IMG/VR virus record: IMGVR_UViG_3300033512_000519
Span: 1-52,530 of that record
From: a virus
Lineage: Duplodnaviria; Caudoviricetes
Reading direction: 5' to 3' (one strand)
Length of the DNA: 52,530 nt
Shown one piece after another: positions 646 through 31,400 of the stretch. The notes under the pieces were generated by a model, which was not told the DNA's origin, did not search any database, and saw only the letters and a list, made by a program, of their open reading frames with translations. Every line of letters starts with the position of its first letter. The first letter of the stretch is position 1. The translations under genes and the position numbers were made by a program.

Positions 646-749
646 TTGCTTTTATTCAAAAATACAATATAATATTAAAATAATAGTGGTGAAATAATAA
701 TATAAGGAGGACGATCGTGAAATTCATAAAGACAACTTACTTAAAATAA
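646..749 (+). pseudogene. Promoter, RBS and 10-codon gene stub (MKFIKTTYLK*)
   Basis: TTGCTT-N16-TATAAT (646-673), AAGGAGG (704-710), GTG 717, TAA 747-749. Runs head-on into the truncated methyltransferase. Confidence 0.5.
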
Positions 750-1107
750 ACATATATTCAAATATTTGATGATACCTGTCAGTACTAGGATTTGCCATTC
801 CTGATTTTTCGTAAATCATCGTATCATGAATATTAAACCCAATTTCTTTGAAATATAATGCTTGTTTAAATGAAGTTAATGTCTCACATCCATCAATTGT
901 AGAATCTCCAACTACCCAAACAACCATTCCTCCATTTTTAGTAATCCGATAAAGTTCATTGGCAACTTGTTTAAAGTCAAACGAATATCCATTATAATCT
1001 CTTAAATTATCATATGGTGGGCTAGTCAAAACTAAATCAATATAATTATCGTCCATTTTAGACATTGTATCAATACAGTTCTCATTATATATTTGATTTG
1101 TTTTCAT
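724..1107 (-). pseudogene. 3'-truncated beta-class DNA methyltransferase (N6_N4_Mtase family)
   Basis: IDLVLTSPPY catalytic motif and HDTMIYEK...FEYMFILSK are present. The ORF ends at 127 aa with no DPFxGxG SAM-binding motif. Confidence 0.8.
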
Positions 1108-1145
1108 GTTTTCTATTATACAATATGGAAATATAGAAAAAATAG

Positions 1146-1182
1146 AAAAAAAGAGGCTCAGGCGAACCTGAACCTCTTTTCT
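1146..1182 (-). terminator. Rho-independent terminator after the duplicated capsid-gene end
   Basis: Minus strand GAGGTTCAGG-TTCG-CCTGAGCCTC followed by T7. Confidence 0.8.
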
Positions 1183-1183
1183 G

Positions 1184-1252
1184 TTTTAATCAGTTAGATT
1201 AAGAACCAGCAGTTACTGCAACTTTCACACAGGCATAGCTGTTGATAATTAC
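1184..1252 (-). repeat. 69-bp direct repeat copy A (duplicate of capsid gene 3' end)
   Basis: 66/69 identical to 1899-1967, offset 715 bp. Confidence 0.95.
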
Positions 1253-1536
1253 TCGTATTGACTTACATATTCATCCCCTTCGTGTCCGAAACCCATCGAT
1301 GATAATATCTCAATAACTTGATTTCTTTGATTCTCTGCTCTTTGCTTAAGTTCTGGAGTAATCAATCTTGTATCCTCTTCTAAAGAACTGTTCATTTCGT
1401 CGGTTTCATCTTCTGATAAATCTTCTGAACCCGGATACATAAACCCAAATCCCCAAGGGAAATAAGAATTTGAATTTACACTATATACATCATCGCCTAT
1501 TTGGGACTGGAGTTTCGATCTCACAGATTCAAACAT
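1249..1536 (-). CDS. Acidic hypothetical protein, probably the frameshifted C-terminal half of 1529-1825
   Basis: MFESVRSK... begins right after an A8 run. Removing one A fuses it to the upstream ORF (191 aa). Confidence 0.6.
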   Translation of the reverse strand: MFESVRSKLQSQIGDDVYSVNSNSYFPWGFGFMYPGSEDLSEDETDEMNSSLEEDTRLITPELKQRAENQRNQVIEILSSMGFGHEGDEYVSQYE

Positions 1537-1825
1537 TTTTTTTCTCATTTTTTGAAAGTTTACTAACGGCTCCGCCGTAAGCATCCTCGCAAGCCTCTTT
1601 AACAAAAAACATAATACCAGTACTAGATCCGTATGGAGCCATATCGACATCTCCAACTCCAAAATAATATTCTTGCGGATTAAGGAATTCTTTTTCTTCT
1701 TTAATAACTCTCTCAATTGTATATAAAGCTTTTTTGTTCCATCCCGCTTTTTTACCAATTGATTCCCATTCACTCTTCGATATCTTAATGGTTTTCTTAC
1801 CACTCGCCTTTTTTACTATTTTCAT
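1529..1825 (-). CDS. Leader-bearing putative internal head protein, N-terminal part
   Basis: First 33 aa are 26/33 identical to the N-terminus of 19761-20129. RBS GGAG upstream. Confidence 0.75.
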   Translation of the reverse strand: MKIVKKASGKKTIKISKSEWESIGKKAGWNKKALYTIERVIKEEKEFLNPQEYYFGVGDVDMAPYGSSTGIMFFVKEACEDAYGGAVSKLSKNEKKNV

Positions 1826-1858
1826 AGCTACTCCGTCTTAGTTTATTTACATTGTGAT

Positions 1859-1892
1859 AAAAAGAAAAGGTAGGGGAAACCCCTACCTTTTC
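1859..1892 (-). terminator. Rho-independent terminator of the capsid operon
   Basis: GC-rich stem AAAAGGTAGGGG / CCCCTACCTTTT followed by a T tract. Confidence 0.85.
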
Positions 1893-1898
1893 TAAAGC

Positions 1899-1967
1899 TT
1901 TTAATCAGTTAGATTAAGAACCAGCAGTTACTGTAATTTTCGCACAGGCATAGCTGTTGATAATTAC
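1899..1967 (-). repeat. 69-bp direct repeat copy B (capsid gene 3' end plus 15 nt)
   Basis: Matches 1184-1252 with 3 mismatches. Confidence 0.95.
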
Positions 1968-2780
1968 AATACCGATTTCCTCATATATAACCCAGCCGAG
2001 GCGGAGTTTCTTAGGATCGTCCGCTGGGAGAACAGTGATGTCCTGACGAATCGGGAAAGCACCAACGTACTCAGCAGGGGCGAGCAAGAATACCGTATCG
2101 GTAGGGCATTTTGAAGACACATGAATGTCAGCCGTGAACAAGTGTCCGAAGAGACCTGTTGTCAGAACTTCTTTCTGTGTTGCTTCATCGTACACCGTTT
2201 TACCGAAGTTACGGATATCCGCATAACGAAGAGCGTGGCAAATGATCTTACCAACGGTAAGGTCATGCTGCTCGATTGTTGCAAACGCCTGATTCAATGC
2301 GTTAAGTGTTAATGTGCCACCAGTTGAAACAACTGTATGAGCGGCATCAACTGCTGCATTAATAGCGTTGAAGATGTTCAGGTCTTCTTCCTTCTGGATC
2401 GCTTCTTTCGCCTTGATCTGCGCACGGTCTACAATGTAGAAACGGCGAGCCTTGATTTCAGAAAGACGAATCGTAGGATTCGTTGCGATTTCGAAAGTAG
2501 GAACCAAGATTTCCTCACCTTCTGTGATCATATCAGGAACGGCACCACGACGTGAAATCACGTGGGCTGTAGCTCTGACATCCTTCTCATAACGTGCATA
2601 AGCACCCTGAGGAAGCTCATCAACCATAAGCAGTTTACGACCAACCGCTTGATATTCCAAAGCTCTACGAATAGGTTCAACCATTGCCTGTGCAAGTGCC
2701 ACACGACCTTGAGGTGTATCTAACGCCTGAGCGATGAGCTTTTCTCTTTCAGCATTTACTGCTCTTTTATCTATAGCCAT
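1914..2780 (-). CDS. Major capsid protein (HK97 fold, no delta domain)
   Basis: LEYQAVGRKLLMVDELPQGA...EKDV and GWVIYEEIGIVIIN motifs. Follows protease and decoration genes; strong RBS and terminator. Size and order recall Bacillus phage G-type heads. Confidence 0.9.
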   Translation of the reverse strand: MAIDKRAVNAEREKLIAQALDTPQGRVALAQAMVEPIRRALEYQAVGRKLLMVDELPQGAYARYEKDVRATAHVISRRGAVPDMITEGEEILVPTFEIATNPTIRLSEIKARRFYIVDRAQIKAKEAIQKEEDLNIFNAINAAVDAAHTVVSTGGTLTLNALNQAFATIEQHDLTVGKIICHALRYADIRNFGKTVYDEATQKEVLTTGLFGHLFTADIHVSSKCPTDTVFLLAPAEYVGAFPIRQDITVLPADDPKKLRLGWVIYEEIGIVIINSYACAKITVTAGS

Positions 2781-2843: not shown

Positions 2844-3359
2844 TTAGATGGTAAGTTTGATTTCCAGATATGTATTGCTGTTATCACCACTAAGTGCCTG
2901 ATCGCCATTGATGTCAACGCCCGGTACGCCCGTAGGATAAGTACCCGCAGCCTGAATCAAACGACCAACCACGCCAGATGTGATTGATTCTGCCGCTGTG
3001 CAAAGCAAACCATTGTTTGCATAGAGAGCATCACCAATTGTCGCAGAAGCTACATTCGCACTGAACTGGTCAGTAGCAAATTCACCACCGCTATGATATA
3101 CTGTCATTTTGCCAGAAGCTTTTGTTTCATCGAAATAATCCGACGCTCTGGACTGCCAACCTGCTACAATGCCGGGCATTGCAGATGCGCTTGTTGATTT
3201 AGTGTCACCAGCAATACCATAAGGGGCAGTGAAGGTAGCGCTTTGCAGAACTACTTCGCCAGATGCGTTCAAAGACACAATCTGTCCTTTATTAATTGTT
3301 TGACCTGAGGCAACAGCTCTCTCAGCAGCGACTACATGATATCTTTCTATAAGAGCCAT
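2844..3359 (-). CDS. Head decoration/cement protein
   Basis: 171 aa, beta-rich, G/A/T-rich (KGQIVSL, GKMTVY, GDALY), directly upstream of the capsid gene. Confidence 0.75.
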   Translation of the reverse strand: MALIERYHVVAAERAVASGQTINKGQIVSLNASGEVVLQSATFTAPYGIAGDTKSTSASAMPGIVAGWQSRASDYFDETKASGKMTVYHSGGEFATDQFSANVASATIGDALYANNGLLCTAAESITSGVVGRLIQAAGTYPTGVPGVDINGDQALSGDNSNTYLEIKLTI

Positions 3360-3617: not shown

Positions 3618-6600
3618 TTATTTTTCACCATATATTGTCAATTCTTTATCAAACTTAGAATTTCCAATTGTAAATGAACTTGCTAATCTTGTTGCCAAAT
3701 TGTCGCTATCGCTACCCATTGGTTTTGATTCCTGAACGATTGCTGGTATACCATGACCAGTTACAACAGTCTTTTCAGCAGAAGCCGTTTTAACTGTTTT
3801 CTCTGGGAACATGCGACCTGCTACGACCTGTATCTGATCGGTTTCAAATCCCATCAAAGATTGAACAACTGTGTCAAAGGTTTCTTTGTCGCTAGCTATT
3901 CTTTTATTTGAAGCCAACCATGCTGCTGTTTGAATCGCTTCGTTTTTGCGAGCATTGGCGATACGATCCATCTGGACTTGACGTTTCTGCTGTACCTGTT
4001 TTAACATTTCGTCATTAATTGCAGGCATATCTTTCTGCATTTCCTTTTTATGACCCATGTAAGAACTATCGACTGGTACATCTGGTGCATCAGCCTTAGG
4101 ATTAATATTGTCAGCTCCTTCATTTCCCATTTCCGCATTGCCACGAGGAATGCTTGGTTTAGCCATAGGAACATCAATATTATCCGCACCTTCATTTCCT
4201 ATAGTTGCTTTGGAACGAGGAACACCAGCTTCCACATCGCCTTCTACTGAATCAACTTCTTGCAATTTTTTGGCTTCTTTATTAAGCAGTTCCAAAATTG
4301 ATTCTTTTGAAACGCCTGCTACTTTGGCTAATTTTGTCGCAATACTATCAGCTACCTCTGCAATTACAGTACCTTTCATTTGGTTATTAATTTCGGGCAT
4401 TCCTTTACCTTTGTTAGCATGATCATATCCGCCTTGGATTTCTTTTTCATGCCCCATATAAGAGCTATCAACAGCTACTTCTGGAAGTCCAATTTTAGGA
4501 TTGATATTTTCTGCACTTTCGTTACCCATCTGTGCATTGGAACGAGGAATGCTTGGTTTGGCCATAGGAACATCGATATTATCGGCACCTTCGTTACGAA
4601 TAGTCGCCTTTGAACGAGGAACGCCAGCTTCTACATTCCCTTCGATGTCATTAACCAGTTTAGGTGTACTTGCCATCTTAAAAACCTCCTTATTTGTATT
4701 TCTTACTCTTTTACCATTCATAGCAAGTGCTATTTGTTTATTATCTTCGGTATTTTCTGTAACAACAGAATCTAATACCGTTTGATTAGATTGAGAAGAT
4801 TCTTTTTCTATTTTTTCTTCTTTGTCGTCGTCTTTTTCCTCTTTATCGTCTTTTGGACATTCGCAAGGATCGCATTCGCATTTTGCACATTCCTTACAAT
4901 CCTTACCAGCTTCTACTATTTCATTTTCAACTTCGGCTTCGATTTCAATAAAATCGGCTGGTGGTAAAGCAGATCCGATATCCGCTTCATCCGCTTCAGC
5001 TAATTTTCTTTGTCTAGCTTCCATCTTGGCTACCTTTTGCTGCTCCATCATACGATTAAGAGTTGACAAGTCTTCAACCTTTATGCCGATCTCTAAATCT
5101 TTTTCAATATCTTCAGCAAAAGCATGAACATAGACGTTATCTGTCATTTCTGACGCAAAACGTTTCTTAACGCAATTGCAAATCGCTTCCGCTTCTTTCA
5201 AGCCATGTCCTTCATTTTTAGTCTGATCTTCGATGCATTCATCCCAAGGATCTTTTTCCATTGATATTGAAGCCATTTTATTTAAATGACGTATTTTACG
5301 GAATCCTAATCTTTGAAGTTCGCCGCATACGCAATCAGCCATCAATTTGCCTTTGCAAGGTCCGAATGAAGCAACAGTGTCACCACCGTATTTTCTCGCT
5401 AAACGTTCCATACATGCGCTTTTTGGGAAGCTATCTGAATTAGCTGATGCTGTTTTCAACATTTTAGCAACTCTTAATTCAGAAGCAAATTTCAAAGCCT
5501 CTTCTTTGCATGACTCACAATTTTCAACATCTGGGAATATATCCCATTGCACTCTTAATACTCCAACCTCAGGATTGCTTGCGCTAACCATGAAATCTTT
5601 TTCTACAGGAGTTCCGCATGCATGACAAGAGAATTCGGTATGTCCGTCAGCCTCAACAGCAGGCTTGCAATGTTTAGCACCGCATGATGGGCAAACGTGT
5701 CCATGTGCCTTCTGGTTATTGGCAATTCTAACGATAGAACCTTTACCAATATTAGTCTGAGCCGCTACTGGAAGTGCAGGAACTTCTGGTGCTTCTGGAG
5801 AGTCTGGAGATTCTGCTCCCTCTTCTCCAACGCTCTTTGTAGGCTTGATTATCTTGAACTCAACTGTCTTCTTGAGAAGAGCTTCGTATTCTGCCGTACA
5901 AGCGTTGCAAGAACCTTTGATGTCTCCACCTTCGTTTGTAACATCAACGTCTGTACTTCCGCATTCTGGACAAACAGTCCAAGGCATTTGACGTTCTCCG
6001 TCAGTAGGAATATCAGTGTCATCCATTCCAGCCGCTGGGTCTGTGGTTAACGCCTGAACTGGATCTCCTCCGGGCATTGCACCGGGCAATCCTTGTTCTG
6101 GAGCACCCTGAGCACCCTGATCCATCCCCGGCATTCCGCCACCCATAGGTGATTGAGCCTTGCGATTTATTTTTGAAGATACTTTGCTAGACTGCTTGCT
6201 CATTTTCTTTTCAGATGATGCCCATGAGTTACCAAGACCTTCGCCAGACATATCGCCCTCTGGAACTGTTTCGTCAGCTGGAGGAGCCATATCTGCTCCG
6301 CCAATAGGAATTTCAGTTGTTCCTGTGCCAGTGTCGATATTCACTTCATTTTCCTCTGTATCCGTTTGAACAGCGATTTGAATAGTATCGCCATTGATTG
6401 TTACATTGGTAATAGAAGCCATACGGAGATTTTGAGAAGCAAGAGCGCCTTTTGCAAACGCTACAACATCCTTCTTAAATGAAGGGTTGTTTTTCGTTGT
6501 ACCCATCTCGCTAAACGAAGTCTGGATTACAGTGTCAGCCTTGCCCAAGCCTTCTTTATTAACTATCTCATTGGTATTATCTTTTTTTTCAACTGAAGCT

Positions 6601-9230
6601 AATATTTGCTTTCTTTCAGCATCTCTTTCTTCTCTAGAGGATTTAGCTTTTTTTGTTTGAAGAGCGGCACGTAATTCAGCTTTACGATTAACCTTAGCTG
6701 TTTTCTCTTGAGTTGCAGAAGCCAAAACTTCTTCAATTTTTTGAGAAACACTATCAATACCGTCCTGTCCTTCAGAAATAATATCTAAAGCATCAATCAA
6801 GATATCAGGATTGATTGTTTGATCGGCGGCATAAGTTCTCAAGCCATCGACAATTGAATTTGCGATGTCTTTATTACCAGCACTAGCAACCTTGAGGTTT
6901 TTATTCTGCCAGAAAGCTACTCTCTTGGCATAATCAATTTCTTCTCTTGGTTTAGAATCTTCAATTAAAGAAGTCGCCAAATTGTAACGGTTTTCTAAGG
7001 AATCAACTAAGCCAGCAGAAACTGAGCAAGCCTCATCAGGTGTACATCCAGTTTGAATAGCAGACTCGGCGATAACCTTGATTACGCATTCCATATGTTC
7101 GGAAGCACTTTTGAACATTGCAGCATTACGCTTGGCAGATCTAGCCCAAGGAGCGGAAGTGTTTTTAAGTTGATTTTCAGTTACCGTATCGGGTTCAGAA
7201 TTAACTCTTTTCTCATCTAATTGCTTTTGAGTAATCATATGGAGATCGGCGTTCTCTCTGTAATTACCTAACTGGTGCTCTTGAACACGATCAACAGTCT
7301 CATTTAGTCTTGGGTGATGTTTAATCCCCTCGTCGAGTTGAGCTTCAGTTAATTCGTCTTCTTCACCTGTACGCAAATCCTCTAATTGTTTTTGCGTGGT
7401 TGAATGTTTATCATCTTTCTGTCTAGCATGATAAAGATCTGAACGTTCCAGCTGTCCTTCCTGAACTTGATCTGGAGTTGTTTGAACTGTAATTGCTCCA
7501 GCTTTTCTACTGATATCGATCATCTTATTTACTCCTTCTTTTTGTTTGTTTAGATTATTCGCAAATGTATCCAGTAAGTTTATTGCTGCATCCTTAGGCG
7601 ACTCTATAATTTCATTTCTTTCTTCTTCTGTTAAATCCTCATATGTCCACACTCTTTTTTCCGACGATCCTTTATCTTCGGCGACAATGATGAATGATTC
7701 ACCTGTTTTGTTTACAGACAAACGATGTTCGTTGTTTTGTATTGACGGTACTTTCTTTATATACTCAAAAAATGATTGTTTTTCCTCCCACGAATTTGAT
7801 AAAACTTCAATTGCCTTCTGTTTTTGAGCTTTTTTCTCTGAAATAGTTCTTCTAGCCGCCATATCTATATCTCCTGTTTTATTAATTCTTTCACAAATAT
7901 TCAATGCTTTTCGTAAAAACTCCTTCCCATCTGCTAGTCTTTGATCATAAGGAACACTCTTTATTCTACAACTTACGTCAGAAATTCTTTGTATAGAACG
8001 ACTATCTTCTATTTCAGACGTTCTAGGTTTTACCGGAGCTGTTATTGGCAAATTAGGTGAAGACGCAGATGGTTTACTAGGCGATCCGCTTACTTTACCA
8101 ACTGCCATCGCCGTTTCAGAAGCCGCTGGAGTAGGCATAGGTGCTCCCTGAGGAGGTTGCATACCTGCTACTGGCGGTTCCATTCCTAAAGTTACATTAT
8201 CTGCTGCCCCCGCTGCTCCTGCTGCTCCACCACCTTCCATATTACCAACTGTACCGGGAACTTCTGCACCTTGTACATTACCATAACCAGCACCTACAAG
8301 TTCTTCCAACCAAGTTTGCAAATCGGACATTATTTTTACTAAGTCGCTAGAAAATTCCATCTCAACTTGCTTACGATTCTGAATAAGACTAACTGCAATT
8401 TGCTCTAATGTTTCAAGACACTGTTCTATCTGATCAATTTCTTCTTGACTGGCTTCCTTGTGAATTGCCGCTGTTTTAATCATACGAAATTCATTTTCCA
8501 TTGAAGCAACTCTTGACAAGAAATTATCGTTTGGTATAATTCCCTCAATATGACAATTAGGACAGGCAGGATCTACAACTGCACTTAATTCTATAAATTT
8601 CAAACCATGATTGTACTCAAATACAGTCTCGTCTTTAAATTGTTTTTCCTCGCCAGTCTTAACATTGCGAGCTTTTCCTGAGAATTTTCTGCCTTTTCTA
8701 TTTCTAATATGACTGCAATAGTCCTCAGTTCTTTCAGCTCTATTTCCGCAAATATTACAGCAGCTATATTCAACGCTACATCCCATTGAAACGCCTGTTA
8801 CATACTCTTCTTCAATTGACCGACATATGTGAGGATAAGCATCTCTATCAATGAAACAAATTGTATATATGGCTTTCTCTTCTGGAACAGCTTCTGCAAA
8901 AATAACTTTACCACGAGCATTTTCTACGTTTTGATTGTCGTGATTTGTAAAGAAAGGGACGCCTTCGAAACTCTTATATGAACCTAAAAGTTCTTCCCAA
9001 GAAAAATAATCGCCATTTGTATTAGGACAATCTGCCTCGATAGCTTTGGCTCTGAAAAACAACGCATTTGGATGCTTTTTGATCTCAGCTAGAACAATAT
9101 TTTCTTTTTCGCTTCCCGGCTCAATAATAACACGACCACCAGCGGTACGCATCATTTTATCTCCACCTTCATTAGCTTTAGCAAATGGATTAATTTCTGT
9201 AAACTTAAATGAGGCTTTTTTTAGTATCAT
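3618..9230 (-). CDS. Prohead maturation protease/scaffold polyprotein (1870 aa)
   Basis: N-terminal protease domain (NxNGDYF, FTNHDN, GVSMGC, CxxC...CxH, FIELSAVVDPA). Then ExQL repeats, zinc ribbons, a duplicated 67-aa unit and a coiled-coil scaffold-like C-terminus. Upstream of decoration and capsid genes. Confidence 0.85.
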   Translation of the reverse strand: MILKKASFKFTEINPFAKANEGGDKMMRTAGGRVIIEPGSEKENIVLAEIKKHPNALFFRAKAIEADCPNTNGDYFSWEELLGSYKSFEGVPFFTNHDNQNVENARGKVIFAEAVPEEKAIYTICFIDRDAYPHICRSIEEEYVTGVSMGCSVEYSCCNICGNRAERTEDYCSHIRNRKGRKFSGKARNVKTGEEKQFKDETVFEYNHGLKFIELSAVVDPACPNCHIEGIIPNDNFLSRVASMENEFRMIKTAAIHKEASQEEIDQIEQCLETLEQIAVSLIQNRKQVEMEFSSDLVKIMSDLQTWLEELVGAGYGNVQGAEVPGTVGNMEGGGAAGAAGAADNVTLGMEPPVAGMQPPQGAPMPTPAASETAMAVGKVSGSPSKPSASSPNLPITAPVKPRTSEIEDSRSIQRISDVSCRIKSVPYDQRLADGKEFLRKALNICERINKTGDIDMAARRTISEKKAQKQKAIEVLSNSWEEKQSFFEYIKKVPSIQNNEHRLSVNKTGESFIIVAEDKGSSEKRVWTYEDLTEEERNEIIESPKDAAINLLDTFANNLNKQKEGVNKMIDISRKAGAITVQTTPDQVQEGQLERSDLYHARQKDDKHSTTQKQLEDLRTGEEDELTEAQLDEGIKHHPRLNETVDRVQEHQLGNYRENADLHMITQKQLDEKRVNSEPDTVTENQLKNTSAPWARSAKRNAAMFKSASEHMECVIKVIAESAIQTGCTPDEACSVSAGLVDSLENRYNLATSLIEDSKPREEIDYAKRVAFWQNKNLKVASAGNKDIANSIVDGLRTYAADQTINPDILIDALDIISEGQDGIDSVSQKIEEVLASATQEKTAKVNRKAELRAALQTKKAKSSREERDAERKQILASVEKKDNTNEIVNKEGLGKADTVIQTSFSEMGTTKNNPSFKKDVVAFAKGALASQNLRMASITNVTINGDTIQIAVQTDTEENEVNIDTGTGTTEIPIGGADMAPPADETVPEGDMSGEGLGNSWASSEKKMSKQSSKVSSKINRKAQSPMGGGMPGMDQGAQGAPEQGLPGAMPGGDPVQALTTDPAAGMDDTDIPTDGERQMPWTVCPECGSTDVDVTNEGGDIKGSCNACTAEYEALLKKTVEFKIIKPTKSVGEEGAESPDSPEAPEVPALPVAAQTNIGKGSIVRIANNQKAHGHVCPSCGAKHCKPAVEADGHTEFSCHACGTPVEKDFMVSASNPEVGVLRVQWDIFPDVENCESCKEEALKFASELRVAKMLKTASANSDSFPKSACMERLARKYGGDTVASFGPCKGKLMADCVCGELQRLGFRKIRHLNKMASISMEKDPWDECIEDQTKNEGHGLKEAEAICNCVKKRFASEMTDNVYVHAFAEDIEKDLEIGIKVEDLSTLNRMMEQQKVAKMEARQRKLAEADEADIGSALPPADFIEIEAEVENEIVEAGKDCKECAKCECDPCECPKDDKEEKDDDKEEKIEKESSQSNQTVLDSVVTENTEDNKQIALAMNGKRVRNTNKEVFKMASTPKLVNDIEGNVEAGVPRSKATIRNEGADNIDVPMAKPSIPRSNAQMGNESAENINPKIGLPEVAVDSSYMGHEKEIQGGYDHANKGKGMPEINNQMKGTVIAEVADSIATKLAKVAGVSKESILELLNKEAKKLQEVDSVEGDVEAGVPRSKATIGNEGADNIDVPMAKPSIPRGNAEMGNEGADNINPKADAPDVPVDSSYMGHKKEMQKDMPAINDEMLKQVQQKRQVQMDRIANARKNEAIQTAAWLASNKRIASDKETFDTVVQSLMGFETDQIQVVAGRMFPEKTVKTASAEKTVVTGHGIPAIVQESKPMGSDSDNLATRLASSFTIGNSKFDKELTIYGEK
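4035..4634 (-). repeat. Two 201-bp (67-aa) internal repeats in the protease/scaffold gene
   Basis: 4434-4634 and 4035-4235, VEAGVPRSKATI...DSSYMGHxKExQ, 55/67 aa identical. Confidence 0.9.
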
Positions 9231-11677: not shown

Positions 11678-13948
11678 TTATTGTTTTTGAGCGTTATGGT
11701 CGTCTTTATATTCCTGAAGATTCTTTTTCATCCACATTTTCTTTCGCATAACCTCTTGCAACACTGTACGGGAAATTTTCGGTCCGTCATGATCAATTTC
11801 TGTATCTGTGAATCTCAATATAGTCCAACCTTGTTGTTGTAACTTTGCATCTCTAGCGTTGTCTCTCTCAATTTGATCGGGAGAACCATGGAATACCTCT
11901 CCGTCAGCCTCAATTCCTATTTTCAACTCAGGTATTCCAAAATCTAATGCGTATTCTTGACCTGCCGCCTGAACCCTATATTGTGGGTATATAGTCTCAG
12001 TCAGTAATCCTTGAGTTTGAGCTTGACGCAATATAGGAATTAAATCTCTTTCCGCCTTTGTAAACATAATACGACCTTTCTCGTCTCTCATCTGTCCATT
12101 AGCATCCTTTTGACCTCTAACTCCTTGCGTTTCTTGTTGTCTAAAGATTTTTTGTTGATCTGATTTGATTCTGTCTCTCGTCTTCTGCTTTAAAACTTTA
12201 CCGCCAAATTGACTTGGATCGGCAATCTCAGCCGTTACGCTAGAACTTTTGGGCATTGGTCCGCCTACCCCGCCGCCAACTGGAGATGGAATTCCACCTT
12301 CAGCTCCACCGCCGGGAGCACCAATTGGAGGTTCGCCCATGTCGCCTCCGCCACCGCCACCAAGAGGAGGCATAGATGGTGCTCCACCACCTCCACCAAA
12401 TCCGCCTCCGCCAGCCCCGCCAGCAGCATCACCAAAACCTTGTCCAATTGCCATAAATTGTAAAGCATCATATCTTTTTCTTTCGATTTCCATATCTGGA
12501 TCAAGATCAAACGCTTCAAGTACAGTTTGGGCACTCAATAATCCCTTATCATAAAGCTGAATTATAAACGTTCTATACTGTTGCTGATCACGAAGATGCA
12601 TTGATCCCCATTTTATTTTAGGATAAATTAAATCTTCTTCGCCTGTATCTGGATTAACATCTACAAAACCTTGTCGTTTCGCCTCTGGAAGATATAAATT
12701 CTTTTCAATCCATCTTGCAACCTCGCCACGGAACGTTTCGAGCCTTTGTATCATCGCCTCAATACCAACGGCTGCACTTGAGAAATTCGGTCCCTCGCCA
12801 TTTAGCAATGCATTATTAATCATCATACCGTCTAGTACTTCTTGATTAATAAATTCAAATTCGTTAGATAATGTCAAAACTCTACCTGCGGCTCCAACGA
12901 AATCTAGTTCAAAAGCATGATGTGTTACAATGGTAAGATTTGGGTCATTGGCTGTTTGAGATAACTGAGATTGAACGTCTGCAATGTCGGCTGGACCCGC
13001 TGGACGCTCATCACTTCCCACTTTTACAATTTTAATAGGCACAATTAATCTTTCTGCAACAATCCATTGAGCAACCATCAATTTTGTTTTATATGAAAGT
13101 ATAGGGAATAATCTTCTAACCATACCTACGCCAAATTTCTGATACCCGCACTCTCCGTATTTCAAATGAGATACATTACGATTATCTAATGGTATGGGTT
13201 GACCAGAAGAAATTAAAGCTACTACATCTGGAGATAGCCTTTCGTAACCCGGCATTTTACGTTGTACCATGTTAATAAGTTCTTCGTCTGGACGCAATGC
13301 AATTCTAGGATCTGGATTTATAGAACTAGATTCAACCTCGATATAATCAGGATTTAATATTACTACCCGACGAATTGTTCCGCCTTCATGTTCGCATATC
13401 TCGTCACCAACTCTTCCAGTTCCATAACAAATTGGACATTCTATTTCAATGAATGGGAAACAATCTCCGAGCAAATGGACTTCATGGCTTATTAATCGAC
13501 ACCATTTAGGTAGTTCTAATTTGTCTTTAAGTTTATCAAAATGTAATTTAACATCTCTGTTTTTACATTCATGCTCAAAATTACTCATTGGAAAGTCGCT
13601 ATAAAAGTCAATAGCAGAAGCAACTTTTGGTTCGTTTTCATAAAAAAATCTAGACCATTGATATTGTTCTAGTCTTTTTGAAGGTATCTGCCAATTTATA
13701 GGGGTATGAACTGGTGAGAAGAATTGAGGTTGACCATAAATAATTCCATTATTGGTCGCCGCCGTTCTCATCATTCCAGAACCCCAAGAGCCAGTCGAAA
13801 CTGCGGCAGTTGGAGCATAATTATGTGAAGGAACTCTTTTATAATCAGGATGATTTGTTATTACTTGTCGGCTTACTTTTGCTGGATCTCTGCTTCTAAG
13901 TGCCTGAAATGCTTGATTCAATCCTGATGTTATTATTTCTTCTGACAT
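11678..13948 (-). CDS. Portal protein with C-terminal DUF559/Vsr-like endonuclease domain
   Basis: Portal-like core (FFYENEPKVASAIDFY, LLGDCFP, ILNPDYIEV, PIKIVKVGS), Gly/Pro linker, then PQYRV...ALDFGIPELKIGIEADGEVFH...DNARDAKLQQQGWTILRF. Confidence 0.85.
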   Translation of the reverse strand: MSEEIITSGLNQAFQALRSRDPAKVSRQVITNHPDYKRVPSHNYAPTAAVSTGSWGSGMMRTAATNNGIIYGQPQFFSPVHTPINWQIPSKRLEQYQWSRFFYENEPKVASAIDFYSDFPMSNFEHECKNRDVKLHFDKLKDKLELPKWCRLISHEVHLLGDCFPFIEIECPICYGTGRVGDEICEHEGGTIRRVVILNPDYIEVESSSINPDPRIALRPDEELINMVQRKMPGYERLSPDVVALISSGQPIPLDNRNVSHLKYGECGYQKFGVGMVRRLFPILSYKTKLMVAQWIVAERLIVPIKIVKVGSDERPAGPADIADVQSQLSQTANDPNLTIVTHHAFELDFVGAAGRVLTLSNEFEFINQEVLDGMMINNALLNGEGPNFSSAAVGIEAMIQRLETFRGEVARWIEKNLYLPEAKRQGFVDVNPDTGEEDLIYPKIKWGSMHLRDQQQYRTFIIQLYDKGLLSAQTVLEAFDLDPDMEIERKRYDALQFMAIGQGFGDAAGGAGGGGFGGGGGAPSMPPLGGGGGGDMGEPPIGAPGGGAEGGIPSPVGGGVGGPMPKSSSVTAEIADPSQFGGKVLKQKTRDRIKSDQQKIFRQQETQGVRGQKDANGQMRDEKGRIMFTKAERDLIPILRQAQTQGLLTETIYPQYRVQAAGQEYALDFGIPELKIGIEADGEVFHGSPDQIERDNARDAKLQQQGWTILRFTDTEIDHDGPKISRTVLQEVMRKKMWMKKNLQEYKDDHNAQKQ

Positions 13949-15397: not shown

Positions 15398-16396
15398 TTA
15401 TTTTTTAAAATGAGAAGCTAATGATTCAGCAAACAAATCTGAAATTTGACGTGAACTCTCTCTTGATGGAGTCTCCCAAACGTCAGCATCTCTATGACGC
15501 TGAATAGACGATTTTCGCTCTTCATTATTAGAAGAAATCTGTTCACCAGCTGTCAAATCAGGAATATCATTAACATTACCATATACGCCGCCGTGAACAG
15601 GCTGATGACCCAATCCCGTACTTGCGTTTAAGCTCTCTGTAGGAAATACTGTTCCTCTTGGAATTATATCAGAGCCTTTCATTCCGTCAACCTTCTCCTG
15701 TTGCCAAGCTTTATGCTCTTTCAACTTCTGAGTCTCTTTTGCCACTATTTGTTTGCGAAGTCTTTCTCCATTATCCATTACTTTGCTTTCTGCCAGTTGT
15801 TTAATAGCGTCTGGATTAGTAATACTATTCTGATTACGAGCTGGATTAACGTCTGAATTCAGGTAATAATCTTCGCCGCCGCCGATAGATCGAATACCAT
15901 TATTTACAGCAGTTGGTTTTGCAAGTGTTGATTGAGGTTTAACCTGTTCCCAATTTGATTGATCCATATGGGATGTATTTGATCTTTCATCGATATTAAA
16001 AGGGTCTTTCCACAGTTCTTTTAACTCTTGACCAACAGACAATGGAGCATCTAACTCAACACTAGCCGTTTTAACTAAAGGCTTTACAGTTGAAGCTTTA
16101 AGCGTTGACACATCGCATGACTTGAATTTATTTAAATCAAGACCGCATGCAATAGCGTACTCACGTAAATGACCAACAACTTCCTTGTCCCATTGAGAAT
16201 TGTAATGATATGGGCTTCTATTAGATGCACATACTTCTATTTTGTCGCATTCTTGTGCTAAAACTGTCTCATCGACTTCTTCCGATATATTGACATTTTC
16301 AACCAATTCCTGTTGTACCTGATTAATAGTAGGCTTTGTTTCTTCCTCCATAAACCAAGGAATTCTTGTTTCATCTGCGACTCTTAAAATATTCAT
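15398..16396 (-). CDS. Putative head protein (332 aa)
   Basis: MNILRVA start, VKTAS site, head-module context. Confidence 0.7.
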   Translation of the reverse strand: MNILRVADETRIPWFMEEETKPTINQVQQELVENVNISEEVDETVLAQECDKIEVCASNRSPYHYNSQWDKEVVGHLREYAIACGLDLNKFKSCDVSTLKASTVKPLVKTASVELDAPLSVGQELKELWKDPFNIDERSNTSHMDQSNWEQVKPQSTLAKPTAVNNGIRSIGGGEDYYLNSDVNPARNQNSITNPDAIKQLAESKVMDNGERLRKQIVAKETQKLKEHKAWQQEKVDGMKGSDIIPRGTVFPTESLNASTGLGHQPVHGGVYGNVNDIPDLTAGEQISSNNEERKSSIQRHRDADVWETPSRESSRQISDLFAESLASHFKK

Positions 16397-18629: not shown

Positions 18630-19427
18630 TTATTTTTCGTAATCAGTGGTCATCAGTTTTGCATAATCTGCGACATATCCCAGATCGTCCTTCCAGAACT
18701 TCAAGACCTTCTTGCGAGTCGTTGGGCTAATCTTGCTTGTTTTTACTAACTGATCTGCACCAGCTAATTTCTTGAGATCATCCTTGACAGATGCAGCCAT
18801 TGCTCCGCAACATCCAGACCCAGGGTTAGATTCGACAACGATATCTTCGCCGCCAAGGTCTTCTCCGCCAAGACCTTCTGAATCGTCAGTTATTTCGATT
18901 TCTACAACTTCCTCATCAGCAGCATCGCCAACCATGTCTTCAACAGCTTCAACGGCTTCGCCACCAACAGCATTTTTAACTTCTGTTACTGCCTGTTCTA
19001 CTTTCTCAACAGCCTCACTAACAGCTTCGGCGAGTTGATCAGCAGCTTCTGCTTTTTCAACTAACTCAGCAACAGCTTCTTGAACATCTCCTGCTACCGC
19101 TTCTGCGCCATCTATTTCGCCGTCTTCCGCCATGTCGTCTTTTTTGTCAGCACCTTCGATATCATCAACGATATCTTCGGCTACGTCAGCTACATCTTCA
19201 ACTGCGTCATCCGTAGCAACATCTTCTTCAACTTCGGTGTCGCCAAACTGTGCCATAACGTTTTTAGCCGCCTCATACAGCAAATCTTTGCTTGTTTTTG
19301 CAACGACTTTAGGTTTTGCCTTGCCGTTCGCAGAAGCTGTCTTCACGATCTCTTCTTTCGATTCGGTTGCTTTAGGAACCCAATCAAAATCAAACTTACC
19401 AACTGGTGTAATAACTGCCATTTTCAT
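18630..19427 (-). CDS. Highly acidic scaffold/core-like head protein
   Basis: D/E/A-rich coiled coil, VKTAS site, own AGG-N18-GAAATA promoter (19462-19488) and terminator. Confidence 0.7.
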   Translation of the reverse strand: MKMAVITPVGKFDFDWVPKATESKEEIVKTASANGKAKPKVVAKTSKDLLYEAAKNVMAQFGDTEVEEDVATDDAVEDVADVAEDIVDDIEGADKKDDMAEDGEIDGAEAVAGDVQEAVAELVEKAEAADQLAEAVSEAVEKVEQAVTEVKNAVGGEAVEAVEDMVGDAADEEVVEIEITDDSEGLGGEDLGGEDIVVESNPGSGCCGAMAASVKDDLKKLAGADQLVKTSKISPTTRKKVLKFWKDDLGYVADYAKLMTTDYEK

Positions 19428-19760: not shown

Positions 19761-20129
19761 TTAAGATAATTTAGTAACCTTTGTTTTTTTGGAAGCGGTT
19801 TGTGGCGGTTGAACTTGTTGAGGTTGAGCCTGCTGTGGTTGAACCGGCTGAGCTTGCTGAGGTTGAGCCTGCTGACCTTTGTAATTTGCCGCCGCATCAT
19901 TTTGATCCGCTTGGTTTAACCATTGAGCTAAATAACTCAAAACAGCCTGAGACATCTGTCCGTTTTGTATTGCTGCCATAATTGGTTGAATATATTTTTT
20001 AGCTTCGATATCTGGATCGATTTCGACTTGCGCTTTTTTATTCCATCCTGCTTTCTTGCCAACATTCTGCCATTCACTTTTGCTCATCTTTAATGTCTTT
20101 TTGCCGCTTGCTGTCTTAACTAATTTCAT
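19761..20129 (-). CDS. Leader-bearing Gln/Pro-rich putative internal head protein
   Basis: MKLVKTASGKKTLKMSKSEWQNVGKKAGWNKKA leader, AAGGAG RBS, QQAQP repeats. Confidence 0.75.
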   Translation of the reverse strand: MKLVKTASGKKTLKMSKSEWQNVGKKAGWNKKAQVEIDPDIEAKKYIQPIMAAIQNGQMSQAVLSYLAQWLNQADQNDAAANYKGQQAQPQQAQPVQPQQAQPQQVQPPQTASKKTKVTKLS

Positions 20130-21998: not shown

Positions 21999-24446
21999 CT
22001 AATTGAGCTTTTTTAATTTCCACAATCCATATTCATCAAAAATTGCATCCGCCTCTTTATTTCCTTCAGAACGTATACTTTCCCTTGCAAATAATAATTC
22101 AAACTCGGAATAACCTCCTTTAAATAAAGAATTTGAATTAGTAATCATGGCATATTCCAAATCCTTGTCTATATCCATTCCGTATTTTAATTTCAATTTT
22201 AATGCTCTCAAAATAATAAATGGATTGTTTTTAACCAGATTTTTTGGATTATAATATGTCTTTATAACATTGTCTCGTATAGCTTTCTTGGCAACACGCA
22301 ATGGGTCAATAACTATATCTTGGATTATATTGTAAGCGAACATGTTTATTGTAAAATCTCTTCTTAAAATATCAATTACCATCTGGTTATGTAAATGCTT
22401 ATTCAATAAAGACAACTGAGCAATCTCTTTTTTATTTACGTTCAAGCTTAATTCTACTTTTATCCCTTTGTAAATAAATACCAAATCACTACCAACTGAA
22501 TATTGAACTCCCAAGCGAGAGGCAAGTAACTCTCCGAATTGAGCGTTAGATCGTTTGCAAGAAGTGGATATATCTAATTGTTCAACATCAGGATTGTCAA
22601 CGCCGAAAACCTTCTCTCTAGCGTACATACCTACAGCAAAAACATCAGATATTCCCATTTTCATAGCCAAAGACCTAGCCATAGTAATAATTTCTTCTAC
22701 TATTTTAGATCTGTAATTTGAAAATCCTAATAAATCCTCGATCAACTCGTCCAAATCTTCAGAGACTTTATCACTTTGAAATCTAGATTCAGCCTGTCTA
22801 AGAGTATCGGTAGGAATAGATGGATCTGTAATCCACACCGCATAGATAAGTTCTCCGCTATCTGTTTTACCGAATGAAAATGTTTTTACATTAACTCCAT
22901 CGCATGCAACAACACTTTTCAGCATAGGATATAAATCACTCGTTATTACAAGTCTTGAAGCTTTCATGTTTTTGGTTAAAATTCGATCCTTTATGGTCTC
23001 TAGAACCCTTAATATCTGTGGAACATCTGATTCCACACCAACTTCAGCTTGAGCAAATCTCTTGGCAGGATGTGTATTAGCTAAATCTTGCGTCATGTCG
23101 TCCCATAACTGCGGCTTTAGTTTTGGGTCAATCCATTTATAATAAAATCCCTTGATATCATAAGTCGGATTATAACGTGGTTGTGCTTTTATCCAATCTT
23201 CTTCGGCTGCAAATGATTCATCTCTATCATCCCATGCCATGACTCTGTCGCCCAATCCCGGTATTGTTGAACCGTCAGAAATATCTAGATTGTTGTACCA
23301 TCCAAACAAAGTCGCCTCTTTCTTAAGATTTGATGCTGTTTTTTCAAGTGGAACCATAAGAGGCTGTGGTCGTTTTTCTTCCAATAATTGCTCTAATGTT
23401 TTATATCCAGAAGACGTATCCCAATCCTTTGATAAAAGCTCTTCATAAATAAGCTCGACATTAGGAACGTAATCATTTGCAAATTGTTTTCTAAGTTGTT
23501 TTTCTATTATATCGCTGGCTTGGTTCAAACCTTTAGCTAATGGACTCATAAACTCTCGACCTAATCTGTTTTCAATTGGCTCGCTTTGATTCTGCTGAAG
23601 AAGCATACTCCATCCAGCCATAGTCCCGCCTACATATTGTTTGCCACCATGTCTTCCGCTTAAATCAGAACCATTAGGCTCATTTCTCGTATAAGATGGT
23701 AAATAATTAACATACTGTGCGTATTTATACCAATTCGTTCCTTTTGCAGTAACTCCAAGATCTACTGGTAAGTCCTCACCCGATTCTGACTGGTATTTTT
23801 GTTTTATTGTATCAATCATCTTGTTGACGAAATCTCTTTCCATACTTTGAGAGGCGGATTCGTCTCCACCACGAGAGTGTTCCCATTCATGGACAATAGT
23901 TGCTCCTAATTCCAGCATAATCAACATATCCCATAGTAAATTTGGATTGGCAATAGTTACTCCATTTGCTTGAGACTCATTGACTATACTTTGCATGTTC
24001 TGCTGAGTAGCACTTTTAACTTTATTGATATTTACACCAATAACTTCGCTTTTTCCAGCATTAATCTGATCCCATAATTGTTTGATCTCGTCTTGAACTA
24101 AAGAATCGTCTTTTTCAGAATCTTTAGGATAAGCAACTAACATGCCGCCTTCATCTTTAATTTCATAACCAGCCTGATTTAATCTGGTTTTTAGTTCATT
24201 GGTCTTTATTTCTTCCACTAAAGCAGGGATATATACTCCATATGCTCCCTGATTGGAAAAATCAAATATATAAGAAACATCCTGAGAAATTTGAGGAGCG
24301 TACTGATATACCAACTGCATAGTTTCTGGAGTTCTTGAAAACACAGAGGATAATTGAGAGTAATCAATATTGCCACCAACACTATATTGTGGCAGTGCTC
24401 CCTGATAATAAGATGAATAATCCTGATTTTGAGATATTTTCTGCAT
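21999..24446 (-). CDS. Multidomain protein: HExxH zincin-like domain, ExQL repeats, degenerate CCA-adding/poly(A) polymerase-fold domain
   Basis: TIVHEWEH; VFAVGMYARE...QLDIST; DILRRDFTINMFAY; NPFIILRALK. Confidence 0.8.
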   Translation of the reverse strand: MQKISQNQDYSSYYQGALPQYSVGGNIDYSQLSSVFSRTPETMQLVYQYAPQISQDVSYIFDFSNQGAYGVYIPALVEEIKTNELKTRLNQAGYEIKDEGGMLVAYPKDSEKDDSLVQDEIKQLWDQINAGKSEVIGVNINKVKSATQQNMQSIVNESQANGVTIANPNLLWDMLIMLELGATIVHEWEHSRGGDESASQSMERDFVNKMIDTIKQKYQSESGEDLPVDLGVTAKGTNWYKYAQYVNYLPSYTRNEPNGSDLSGRHGGKQYVGGTMAGWSMLLQQNQSEPIENRLGREFMSPLAKGLNQASDIIEKQLRKQFANDYVPNVELIYEELLSKDWDTSSGYKTLEQLLEEKRPQPLMVPLEKTASNLKKEATLFGWYNNLDISDGSTIPGLGDRVMAWDDRDESFAAEEDWIKAQPRYNPTYDIKGFYYKWIDPKLKPQLWDDMTQDLANTHPAKRFAQAEVGVESDVPQILRVLETIKDRILTKNMKASRLVITSDLYPMLKSVVACDGVNVKTFSFGKTDSGELIYAVWITDPSIPTDTLRQAESRFQSDKVSEDLDELIEDLLGFSNYRSKIVEEIITMARSLAMKMGISDVFAVGMYAREKVFGVDNPDVEQLDISTSCKRSNAQFGELLASRLGVQYSVGSDLVFIYKGIKVELSLNVNKKEIAQLSLLNKHLHNQMVIDILRRDFTINMFAYNIIQDIVIDPLRVAKKAIRDNVIKTYYNPKNLVKNNPFIILRALKLKLKYGMDIDKDLEYAMITNSNSLFKGGYSEFELLFARESIRSEGNKEADAIFDEYGLWKLKKLN

Positions 24447-28422: not shown

Positions 28423-31400
28423 TTAAACCCATCCCGTCCTAACTAGAATTGGAGCTGGTAAAGCCATCCTTAATCCTTCGTTTGCCGCCCATGTAGCTCC
28501 CGCCAAACAATCGCTCAAATCGTCCAACCCAACATCGCCATTTTTATCAGGTAATATAGTATATCCTCTTTTTGTTTTCTTAAACTTAAGCTCTTTCAAT
28601 TCACCAAGCAATAAATTTGTCTCTGAACAATTATCATACAGTAATATTTCCGGCTCAGGCTGATACAGCATCATATTACGTAAATTCTGATACACTTTAC
28701 ATTTAACTCTATCATTAAACGCTATTTGGTGACAATTAATTCCATGTCCTCTTAACTTTTGTACACTATGAACTGAATGATAATCGTCATATGTTACGGA
28801 CATTGGGTGAAATCTTGCACAAATTTTTATCATTTCATTATCAATATCATCAAACAACAGTCCTAATCCGGGCATTGGCTTCCATAACCAAACACCAGCT
28901 AACGAGCATCTTATTCTTTTTTGACCCTGCGGAGTAACATATCTCTGCTTCGCAACCATAACTGCCGCATAATTATTGCTTTTCTTAGCTGGGTCAACGT
29001 GTATATAATAATTAGTGGCTGGCATTGGTCTGGTATGAGGTCCAATATCGAACTTCAAACATCTATCTACAGCCCCCTCTTCAAAATAATTACCATACGC
29101 ACCGCTAGTTGACCATTGTGCTCCAAATTCTATAGTAAACATTTCTGGATTTGCATTGCGTTCCTTCATCATTTCTGGATCTGAATAAGAAACGTCCAAA
29201 TTTATATCCCAAGTAGGCAATTGGAATGATATACATGAATCTGCAATTGATTTTTCACTCGACGTTGCCTCGTTAAAAGCATCATAAAAGGCTCCATTTC
29301 GACTATTTGGAGAAGATATCATCACTACCTTGCCAGCTTTATATTTATAAAACTTTGATAATGAGGGCTTTAAACGATTAACAAAATATTTCCCTGTTAC
29401 CTTTCCTGTTTCATCATAGAACGCAATTTCGTCAAAAAGCAACAAAATAGCACTATATCCAGCTAATGAGTCAGGATTACTATGTCCGCACAGCAGTAAA
29501 ATTGACCCCGGAATACTAAGATTTGCTCCAGACTGCTTCTTTTGTAAATCACGGTCTGTATATAACCTAACTGAATCGGCTGTTTCCTTTGCGACACGAT
29601 TTTGGAAGAATGGCGAGTTTCTTATTCTTGCCTGAACTTGACCGAACAGACGCCCCGCTTGTTTTTGAGACAAAGCGACGTTGATTATTGCTATTTCGTC
29701 ATCATCTGGCAAGTTGTAATATCTATGTGGATCTCCGTTGTTAATAACTAATAATTTATAAGCCTCGTAAGCAGTAATAATCGATGCCATGAAAGTATTA
29801 TGTGAAATTATATCTCCACCTATAATATGATGAGGATCAACTTGTAAATCAACGGTTTTCGTTATCCCAACATGAATAACTTCATCAACAGTATCCCATT
29901 TCAAATCAGACTTAGCGCTATTTACAATAAATTCATTTCCGTAATTTTCACCAATTTCAATCAATTTGTCACGATTAGCTGAATACTCTTGTCTTAAACG
30001 TCCACTGATTGTTGTCGTTAATGCATTAATGGAAATGTTTTTATCATTTGATTCTTTTTTCAAAGCGTTCCATATTCCATGGGGGATGTTGTCAAATGGA
30101 CTTTTAGGTTTTGATCTTAGTTGTGATATTTCAACCACTTGATTGACTATTTGCTCTTTGGAAAAAATATTGATTTCATCTCTGAATTTTTTTAAACAAT
30201 CTTTTCTAACAATCGACAATCTCCAACTATCTTTATATCCGTCTTGATATTTTGCTTTAGAATATCGAACTGTAGCATGTATACCAAATTTTAAAAGCAA
30301 ATGTCTTATATCCATAACCAATTGTTTTGATGCCAAAGTACATCCGATAAGCGTTTTTTTAATTTTGTGTTCAGAATCAAGAAAACTATCAACAGATCCC
30401 CATCCATCACATCCGAAAAAACGAGACAAAAATGCCGATACTTCCGCCTTGGAACCTTCAAGTATACATTGTGGAACCCTCTTGTCTACAGATTTTTTTC
30501 CATAAACGCCCTCTGCTTTTAACCACTCCTTGACTTCATTCTGCTGGCTTCCTTTTTGATTGAATCGTCCACTGTCTTTAACTACCACATAATCATAATT
30601 TTCACGATGATTTACTGAATATCCTATGAACTCCTCGTTTATTAATCTTTTAAAATCTTGCAACATGACATCTGAACCAGTTGAATAACCAATATGATGC
30701 GTAATACCTCCATCTCCTTGAAAATGTCCTAGTAAAGCCGCTCTATTAGATCCTACCCTACCACGACCAAATAATTCTGTTTTATCTGCAACTGCAATTT
30801 TGTCGCCAATTTTTATATCCTTTAATTTTAAGAATTTTGGTTCGTTAAAATCGTCTCTCCATACCAAATAAGGATGATTCCACGATGATGTCTCTTCGAT
30901 TCCCCTTGACGTTCTTAATGTATAGCATTCAACCGCTCCATTATCTTTAGCCTTAACGTCATATGTAACCGATCTTTTCCAAATAGTTGTGTCATACGTA
31001 CAAATCCCTATTTTCTCTCCAGCACTAAGCCTGTCGCATAAAGATCGAAAAGTTAAAGAACCTTCCGTTGTTGCTATTAAATCATCCTCGCTTCTGCATT
31101 TCGATCCACGTCTTCCGAGTACCAAAACTAATTGCGTAAATGGATTATATTTTGCAGCTTTCTCTTTTTCGTGCAATTTAGTAATAACATCTCTTAGATT
31201 TCGTTCATAGGTAATTCCATCTAATTCTATATTGTCTTGTCTCTCATATAGCCATTCCCATTCGGATTGCGATAATTTTAGATCTTCGTTACCGATAGTA
31301 CCTTTATAAAAAGCCTTTAATATAACTGATTGACCGGGATAAATCTTAAATTCAATTTCCTCCATATTGAATTCATCAGTCTCTTCTTCTTTCTTAGCAT

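Follow-up and report, generated by a model that had tools for sequence, protein, structure and literature searches.

In the mitochondrial DNA of Glomus and Allomyces, mobile open reading frames (ORFs) for endonucleases are flanked by duplications of the C-terminal part of the gene they enter (PMC3630166). The cases given in the sections of that account on which we draw are atp6 of Allomyces macrogynus and atp6, atp9, cox2 and nad3 of Glomus sp.; in the resulting hybrids the inserted C-terminus and the endonuclease ORF precede the displaced native C-terminus (PMC3630166). Partial duplications of cob and atp6 are likewise reported in the available portion of a second source (PMC6279837). Among phages, T4 carries segD between its genes 23 and 24, as one of the free-standing seg/mob endonucleases (PMC2988022, in excerpt), and homing endonuclease genes are enriched near capsid genes and at the boundaries of exchange (PMC10448857, likewise in excerpt). 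Here we describe a related arrangement behind a phage major capsid gene: a 69-base direct repeat of the 3' end of that gene, enclosing one further gene (the cassette gene), near the left end of IMG/VR virus record IMGVR_UViG_3300033512_000519. The window analyzed is this whole record, 52,530 bases, rated 12% complete. We argue that the duplication is probably a recombination scar, and not the two ends of a self-moving cassette.

The window can be read as a piece of a megaphage genome, because relatives of its capsid gene lie on records of 460-550 kb. IMG/VR contains 175 relatives of the capsid gene, and the best 80 loci of these 175 were fetched for comparison, including the near-identical pairs L010/L014, L033/L034 and L050/L054. 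At the left end of the window the gene order is a decoration-like gene, the major capsid gene, the duplicated feature and a truncated DNA methylase gene, and these genes, with all the repeat, terminator and cassette features located below, are on the minus strand. The major capsid gene (1914..2780) encodes an HK97-like protein of 288 residues matching phrog_2522, major head protein, at E 2.7e-72, with a weak match to Pfam Phage_capsid that falls below the cutoff. The two repeat copies, at 1184-1252 and 1899-1967, agree at 66 of 69 bases and start 715 bases apart; a 35-base run is identical in both. Probes from both ends of the repeat, with up to 3 mismatches allowed, hit exactly two sites in the window, which none of 100 shuffled sequences did. 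An earlier reading made from the letters of this DNA alone (the sequence-only reading) had described the duplication in just these terms, and the window adds no third copy to it.

The proximal copy, R1 (1899..1967), comprises the working last 17 codons of the capsid gene, its stop codon and 15 trailer bases, and its residues agree with the pattern of the 80 relatives. The distal copy, R2 (1184..1252), appears to be an untranslated relic of the capsid 3' end. The three mismatches (at 1219, 1222 and 1227 in R2 and 1934, 1937 and 1942 in R1; GCG>GTG, ATT>GTT and ACA>GCA) are all non-synonymous, turning ACAKITV in R1 into ACVKVAV in R2, and the A>V change falls at a position that holds A or S in 80 of 80 relatives. 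R2 cannot be read as protein in the capsid frame, because a TGA lies 8 codons upstream in that frame and there is no start codon. Judged from these features, the proximal copy completes the capsid gene and the distal copy is unused; that all three changes are non-synonymous is more in keeping with the drift of a copy no longer in use than with two functional genes growing apart. The idea that the second copy could serve as a useful replacement for the capsid C-terminus fares badly here, as the distal tail puts V where relatives have A or S and looks harmful.

Each copy is followed by its own, different terminator, as the sequence-only reading had also seen. T1 (1863..1893), which follows R1 and is part of the insert, has a 14-pair stem and then a T run (−23.7 kcal/mol, z −4.9); T2 (1147..1182), which follows R2, has a 16-pair stem (−24.1 kcal/mol, z −6.0). 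The hairpins differ, with only a short AGAAAAG..GGT start in common. Beyond T2 lies the truncated methylase gene, and this order is found again in a close relative, L005, whose capsid is 97% identical: there the capsid gene is followed by a terminator and then the methylase (82% identical to that of the window over 95 residues), with nothing between. The sequence-only reading had envisaged such an empty site in related phages, and L005 supplies it. T2 is therefore probably the resident capsid terminator; because the same order occurs at the empty site, R2-T2-methylase is the older junction and R2 is most simply the tail of the resident gene.

The difference between the terminators also bears on whether a second genome was involved. 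If the event had been local, by slippage during replication or by unequal exchange between sister molecules of one genome, no second parent would be needed, and the copies are indeed 96% identical and share an identical 15-base trailer that is absent from the relatives. Unequal exchange, however, would have duplicated the terminator too, yet T1 and T2 are different hairpins, and the empty-site relative shows T1 plus the cassette to be added material. A simple tandem duplication within the genome is excluded on the same ground, and two parents differing right behind a shared trailer are needed. We regard a purely local event as very improbable.

The assembly was cross-checked against Logan contigs of four sequencing runs, among them X1 and X2 from two different studies; at a depth of about 5, such contigs miss rare forms and circles. 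A 745-base contig of X1 corresponds to 1189-1933 with zero differences: it has the variants specific to R2, continues through the whole cassette and T1, and ends in that part of R1 which both copies share, and a 254-base X1 contig (1904-2157) joins the R1 variants to the capsid body; these two contigs together mean that two diverged copies exist on real molecules. Contigs of X2 cover 1272-1678 and 1722-1892, again with zero differences. The duplication, the cassette/relic junction and the repeat/T1 junction are thus independently supported, which speaks against the misassembly, with no reads spanning both copies, that the sequence-only reading had named as a possibility.

An assembly artefact could in principle have arisen from two strain variants, or from a chimeric join through the 35-base identical run, close to a contig end. 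The feature does lie 1.2-2 kb from the end of the contig, the contigs of the two closest relatives (L004 and L005) also end near here, positions 1030-1188 are uncovered by the X1 and X2 contigs, and depth is roughly threefold higher on the contig with the methylase than on that with the cassette (15.5 versus 5.44). Besides the two X1 contigs, the cassette/R2 junction speaks on the other side: it has no long word in common with the sequence upstream in the capsid gene, and is therefore not a k-mer chimera. A misjoin could lie only beyond R2, and the artefact as a whole is very improbable.

The position directly behind the capsid gene varies widely among relatives. Taking the largest ORF that starts within 1.2 kb, the 77 loci with enough downstream DNA gave 25 clusters, of which 16 are singletons, and this slot is a hypervariable, recombination-prone hot spot, much as the sequence-only reading had supposed. 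In 19 of the 77 loci an ORF for a LAGLIDADG_2 endonuclease stands directly behind the capsid terminator (a count made up of 4 of 4 loci tested, one more, and 14 of 20 cluster members tested). Seven further loci have ORFs with only DUF7487 in the slot, and DUF7487 is fused to LAGLIDADG_2 in L029 and L057. Two side observations come from DNA behind the capsid gene. Exact direct repeats of 36-40 bases, spaced about 66-72 bases apart, lie behind the capsid region of L062 (5830-6655) and of L050 and L054 (8163-8460), and look like CRISPR arrays. Boxes resembling TATAAT stand just 5-7 bases before the ATG of the post-terminator gene in the window (1108-1146) and in L003, L005, L006 and L008, so that genes after the capsid terminator may have leaderless transcripts.

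The arrangement of the window is unique among the 81 loci (the window plus 80 relatives), and a nucleotide direct repeat of at least 30 bases involving the coding 3' end of the capsid gene was found in none of the 80. When each locus was scanned at the protein level with the capsid it encodes (E <= 0.05), six downstream matches did emerge (the window, L079, L069, L043, L041 and L025), of which L043, L041 and L079 were inspected. In L043, 13 capsid codons and the stop recur on the far side of a DUF7487 ORF, some 1.9 kb downstream, with a terminator of their own after them; the DNA is 81% identical, with mostly third-position, synonymous differences. In L041, capsid codons 264-275 recur, with third-position divergence, directly after a LAGLIDADG_2 ORF (E 3.4e-14). 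L079 was not convincing as a relic in the frame inspected. The boundaries of the relics fall at codon 272 in the window, 276 in L043 and 275 in L041.

Two other duplications of capsid-region sequence came to light. L004 has a 51-base direct repeat (86%; 4872-4922 and 5181-5231) that begins 5 bases past the capsid stop and recurs 309 bases on, which is a duplication of trailer and terminator in another close relative. In L084 (3589-4002; at about 193.6 kb of genome G001) an ORF of 137 residues includes a divergent version of capsid residues 12-85 (60% identity, E 4e-22); 230 kb separate this ORF from the true capsid gene, and it adjoins two genes that bear the N-terminal leader described below.

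We propose the following course of events for the scar. The resident genome would have had the order capsid gene, T2, methylase, as in L005, and a closely related phage would have carried a different post-capsid module, consisting of a capsid 3' end, T1 and a leader-tagged accessory gene. The G+C content of the cassette (0.356) equals the window mean (0.356), which points to a donor phage of the same kind. The donor module would have been copied into the resident genome, on the capsid side by way of capsid-gene homology, and on the far side by an illegitimate closure at or beside the TAA of the accessory gene onto resident capsid codon 272, perhaps by a microhomology join between ...GAG TAA of the cassette and GTAATTA... 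of the capsid gene. The end of the resident gene, from its last 17 codons through the stop to the trailer, would thus have been kept as the untranslated R2 before T2. A double-strand break near the capsid 3' end would be the likely trigger, perhaps made by an endonuclease; free-standing homing endonucleases fill the slot in relatives, and the event would then amount to intronless homing with a sloppy distal junction. Drift of the relic, the frameshift of the accessory gene and truncation of the methylase would have followed. The direction in which the module moved, its closure through microhomology and the part played by an endonuclease are our inferences; an origin in break repair is plausible, given the endonuclease genes of the slot and the L041 relic that lies beside one.

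A number of points weigh against this proposal. The cassette gene is not an endonuclease gene (it has no Pfam or PHROG family and no fold match), so any endonuclease would have to have acted in trans. R1 and R2 have just 3 differences in 69 bases, against about 15 in 54 coding bases for the closest relative, so donor and recipient would have been almost the same strain, or the copies would have been homogenized later; the fungal cases and L043, unlike the window, have clearly foreign copies. The donor arrangement (capsid, T1, cassette, no relic) was not found in searches of IMG/VR and of metagenome contigs. Positions 1030-1188 lie outside the X1 and X2 contigs, so that the join of R2 to T2 and the methylase is seen in the window's assembly and not in these contigs. 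Finally, the clustering of boundaries involves three loci, in two of which the match to the capsid is short (within-locus E 0.007 and 0.015), and the L041 relic lies upstream of codon 276, which the simple model does not predict.

A site-specific cassette is the alternative that the geometry first brings to mind: the 69-base repeat would act like an att site for a recombinase whose gene lies somewhere in the 88% of the genome outside the window, and leader-tagged genes would enter and leave behind the capsid operon, as in an integron or an integrative element. One ORF does lie between direct repeats with the target gene kept whole, the window holds only about 12% of the genome, and leader-tagged genes gather behind the capsid gene in relatives. 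To this extent the integrated module that restores its target, as the sequence-only reading put it, stands, since a working 3' end is kept with a second copy beyond; nothing points to a dedicated, excising 715-bp module. As that reading had observed, no integrase is visible: family scans of the 45 ORFs of the window found no integrase or recombinase family. The repeat occurs twice in the window, and an exact search of IMG/VR with a 30-base probe gave no match beyond the window's own record (which the scan may omit). None of the 80 related loci has a repeat of at least 30 bases at the capsid coding end, though several of them hold leader-tagged genes; the repeat folds no better than shuffled sequences (z −1.2 and −1.9), and so shows no att-like fold; and the relics of L043 and L041 differ in length and boundary, unlike a fixed att site. 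The excised form was sought as a joint skipping 715 bases, and there was none in the contigs of the four runs, which drop rare forms; a joint that "skips 3224" was disregarded, as one of its sides has merely 21 bases. We consider a site-specific cassette very unlikely.

Three further candidates were set aside. A transposon target-site duplication was rejected, since the repeat is 69 bases long, no pair of inverted repeats was found flanking the insert, and the ORF scan showed no transposase family. A group I intron or alternative 3' exon was rejected because the capsid gene needs no splicing to be whole and the Rfam scan matched no intron. Translation of R2 through a −1 shift from the cassette frame was dropped, as nothing supports it.

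The gene between the copies begins at 1825, with GGAG 7 bases before its ATG, and opens MKIVKKASGKKTIKISKSEWESIGKKAGW. Its first part (1529..1825, 98 residues) holds a 30-residue leader and the N-terminal half of the body, and ends at a TGA created by a frameshift; the second part continues in the +1 frame (1249..1560). The break lies at a run of eight A (A8, 1536..1543), where seven would give the reading EKKMF that homologues have. The single leader-tagged gene of the sequence-only reading is therefore there with its leader, split by the frameshift and not as one open frame. Its stop codon does come from the repeat, as had been claimed: the TAA at 1249-1251 lies inside R2, in a frame that differs from that of the capsid gene.

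An exhaustive search with the second part found two homologues only, P0010 (175 residues; E 6.3e-11, over its residues 78-166) and P0011 (165 residues; E 1.1e-8, over its residues 60-157). Both cover the two parts in one frame and in the alignment read EKNMF and EKKMF across the break, which means that the A8 run of the window has one base too many. The A8 state is identical in the contigs of X1 and X2, with no insertion or deletion rows, and the 98-residue product is on record from 3 contigs; because contigs of two studies and these records agree, the frameshift is not a one-off assembly error. The cassette protein has no Pfam or PHROG family, and its Atlas matches are all 0.81 or less. The AlphaFold model of P0010 (pLDDT, the predicted local distance difference test, 66) gave nothing in Foldseek at E <= 0.001, and in the VIA wide search its best Z was 6.7, within the usual background. 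No further copies were found in IMG/VR with the cassette parts, P0010 and P0011, and no matches among metagenome contigs with P0010 and the homologue alignment.

From its sequence the cassette gene looks to be decaying, and together with the truncated methylase its frameshift suggests a region in decay, which it fits better than a maintained slot for cargo genes. The methylase gene (724..1107, 127 residues, an N6/N4 DNA methylase) covers only positions 1-106 of a 221-position profile and has no continuation in any other frame, because of which we place a putative second rearrangement scar at about 724.

Decay also counts against a functional duplication, in which the cassette would be silenced, or the capsid given another C-terminus, by recombination of one copy with the other, or in which slippage at the A8 run would serve as a switch. 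Repeats of this length in direct orientation are able to recombine, runs of eight A permit some transcriptional slippage, and the A8 state and the cassette sequence are the same in runs of two studies. The adjoining methylase is, however, broken as well, as a decaying region would have it; the change in R2 hits the position that is A or S in all relatives; the contigs of the four runs contain no deleted form; and the arrangement has no parallel among the 81 loci. We hold a functional role of this kind to be as improbable as the assembly artefact.

The leader itself recurs elsewhere. A second leader-tagged gene lies in the head-gene block of the window (19761..20129, minus strand), with 62% identity to the cassette gene over the first 50 residues; the contig of L005 has an orthologous position. 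The leader, of about 30 residues, is also present on eight database proteins (P0002-P0009) whose bodies are mutually unrelated, and 12 leaders compared have a mean column identity of 78%. Between the two leaders of the window, 15 of 34 codons differ synonymously and 8 non-synonymously, because of which the leader is conserved as a peptide under selection and not as a DNA site. Searched by itself against Pfam, the leader had no match up to E 10. P0010 begins with a shortened version of it, and P0011 has MTNWYKTA on the same body family.

The sequence-only reading had pointed to the possibility of other leader-tagged genes at this locus in relatives, and they do occur: in L003, L009 and L010/L014 such genes lie 0.6-1.3 kb behind the capsid stop, and G001, a genome of 476 kb, has five leader matches, three of which fall within 7 kb behind the capsid gene. 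No leader matches were found in four other complete genomes with capsids of about 70% identity. The tetrapeptide KTAS occurs 6 times in the window against 0.36 expected, a number reached by none of 300 shuffles; all occurrences are in head-block ORFs (21999-24446, 19761-20129, 18630-19427, 3618-9230 twice, and 15398-16396), one of them in a leader, and V or L usually precedes. KTAS could be a maturation-protease site, and is the only hint toward head loading of the leader proteins.

Short N-terminal tags of other kinds were seen as well. Starts of the MNWYK(K)A type are present on 21 ORFs and of the MKIYR(L/I) type on 9 ORFs of the fetched loci, on unrelated genes (in L003, L004, L008, L010, L011, L015, L018, L020 and others), and the tagged proteins include a nucleotidyltransferase, a Nudix protein and a kinase-like protein. 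In the window, an ORF with a lysozyme domain (38530-39330) starts MYYNWYKVA. A literature search for the strings MNWYKKA, MNWYK, MKIYRLA and MKIVKTAS found nothing relevant.

It is conceivable, though unlikely, that the capsid 3' end is a portable homology arm in this megaphage clade. On such a view, which we offer as a speculation of the same low standing, units made of a capsid tail, a terminator and a tagged accessory gene (the tags, interchangeable N-terminal addresses, being the 30-residue leader, MNWYKKA or MKIYRL) would travel between co-infecting phages, driven by endonuclease cuts in the conserved 3' end of the capsid gene. If so, proteins delivered with the virion would have a natural place of exchange in this slot, next to the strongest late gene, and in the 69-base relic such an exchange would have been caught in the act. 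Read as a scar, the duplication is a concrete, datable footprint of the entry of an accessory gene into the most conserved late operon of giant phages, in which the donor capsid tail and terminator would have come along and the resident tail would have been left as a relic. The slot endonucleases (19/77) and the relics together lead to the prediction that the enzymes cut around capsid codons 263-276. The leader family, in which unrelated bodies share one set of 30 residues and a single body is found with two tags, bears on protein addressing in megaphages; the practical value is modest.

Among the surroundings, the decoration-like gene preceding the capsid gene occupies 2844-3359, and an ORF of 1870 residues contains a 209-base internal direct repeat (79%; 4036-4244 and 4435-4643). 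In the head block, an ORF of 1066 residues (28423-31623) has an intein with a LAGLIDADG_3 domain and one of 756 residues (11678-13948) a C-terminal DUF559/REase-like domain, which are further footprints of selfish nucleases. At 30-141 the summed contig depth in X1 and X2 is 130-166, against 5-20 in the flanks, with several different continuations at 141-145; the end of the contig may thus contain an element that is repeated or shared. The tRNA search found none, the Rfam scan gave only sub-threshold, terminator-like rows, and DNA similarity to named phages was confined to the methylase. The labels of the sequencing runs suggest microbial mats as their origin.

How the locus relates to described systems can now be set out. 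One comparison is with integrative elements and integron cassettes of the kind that enter a gene at its 3' end and leave it restored. The window resembles them in that direct repeats bound the insert and the target gene is whole, and differs from them in the lack of a recombinase among its 45 ORFs, of a structured site and of reuse of the repeat, and in the variable boundaries of the relics.

For the leader, the likeness is to the capsid targeting sequence of 10 residues on internal proteins of T4 (PMC9026906). As far as the consulted portion of that source describes it, both are conserved N-terminal peptides on unrelated bodies, encoded among or beside head genes. The leader, by comparison, has 30 residues and is known here from sequence alone; the same body also occurs with another tag (P0011, MTNWYKTA), and tags are found on a lysozyme and a nucleotidyltransferase as well.

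Intronless homing of the T4 type shares with the loci studied here a mosaic neighborhood and endonuclease genes that immediately follow the one for the major capsid protein (19 of 77 loci), and flanking DNA is expected to travel with the repair. The slot of the window, however, is without an endonuclease gene, and homing gives co-conversion tracts, whereas kept duplicates of the target end are not described in those parts of the homing literature cited above.

The closest match, by analogy and within the excerpted accounts cited at the outset, is with the fungal mitochondrial mobile-ORF hybrids. The differences are a phage host with the major capsid gene as target, an insert that is a leader-tagged protein without a family and not an endonuclease, and a terminator between the capsid gene and the insert, which is therefore not in phase; in addition the copies of the window are 96% identical, with 3 non-synonymous differences, and not clearly foreign, a respect in which L043 does fit the fungal pattern. 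The likenesses extend to the whole order of parts: the host gene comes first, completed by a functional 3' end that arrived with the insert, then the ORF of the insert, and downstream of it the native 3' end that was displaced. They include an empty site in a close relative (here L005), a native copy that is unused and, in L041, a LAGLIDADG enzyme beside the relic. Read in this way, the window would extend the mitochondrial mobile-ORF pattern, as these sources present it, to a phage structural gene.

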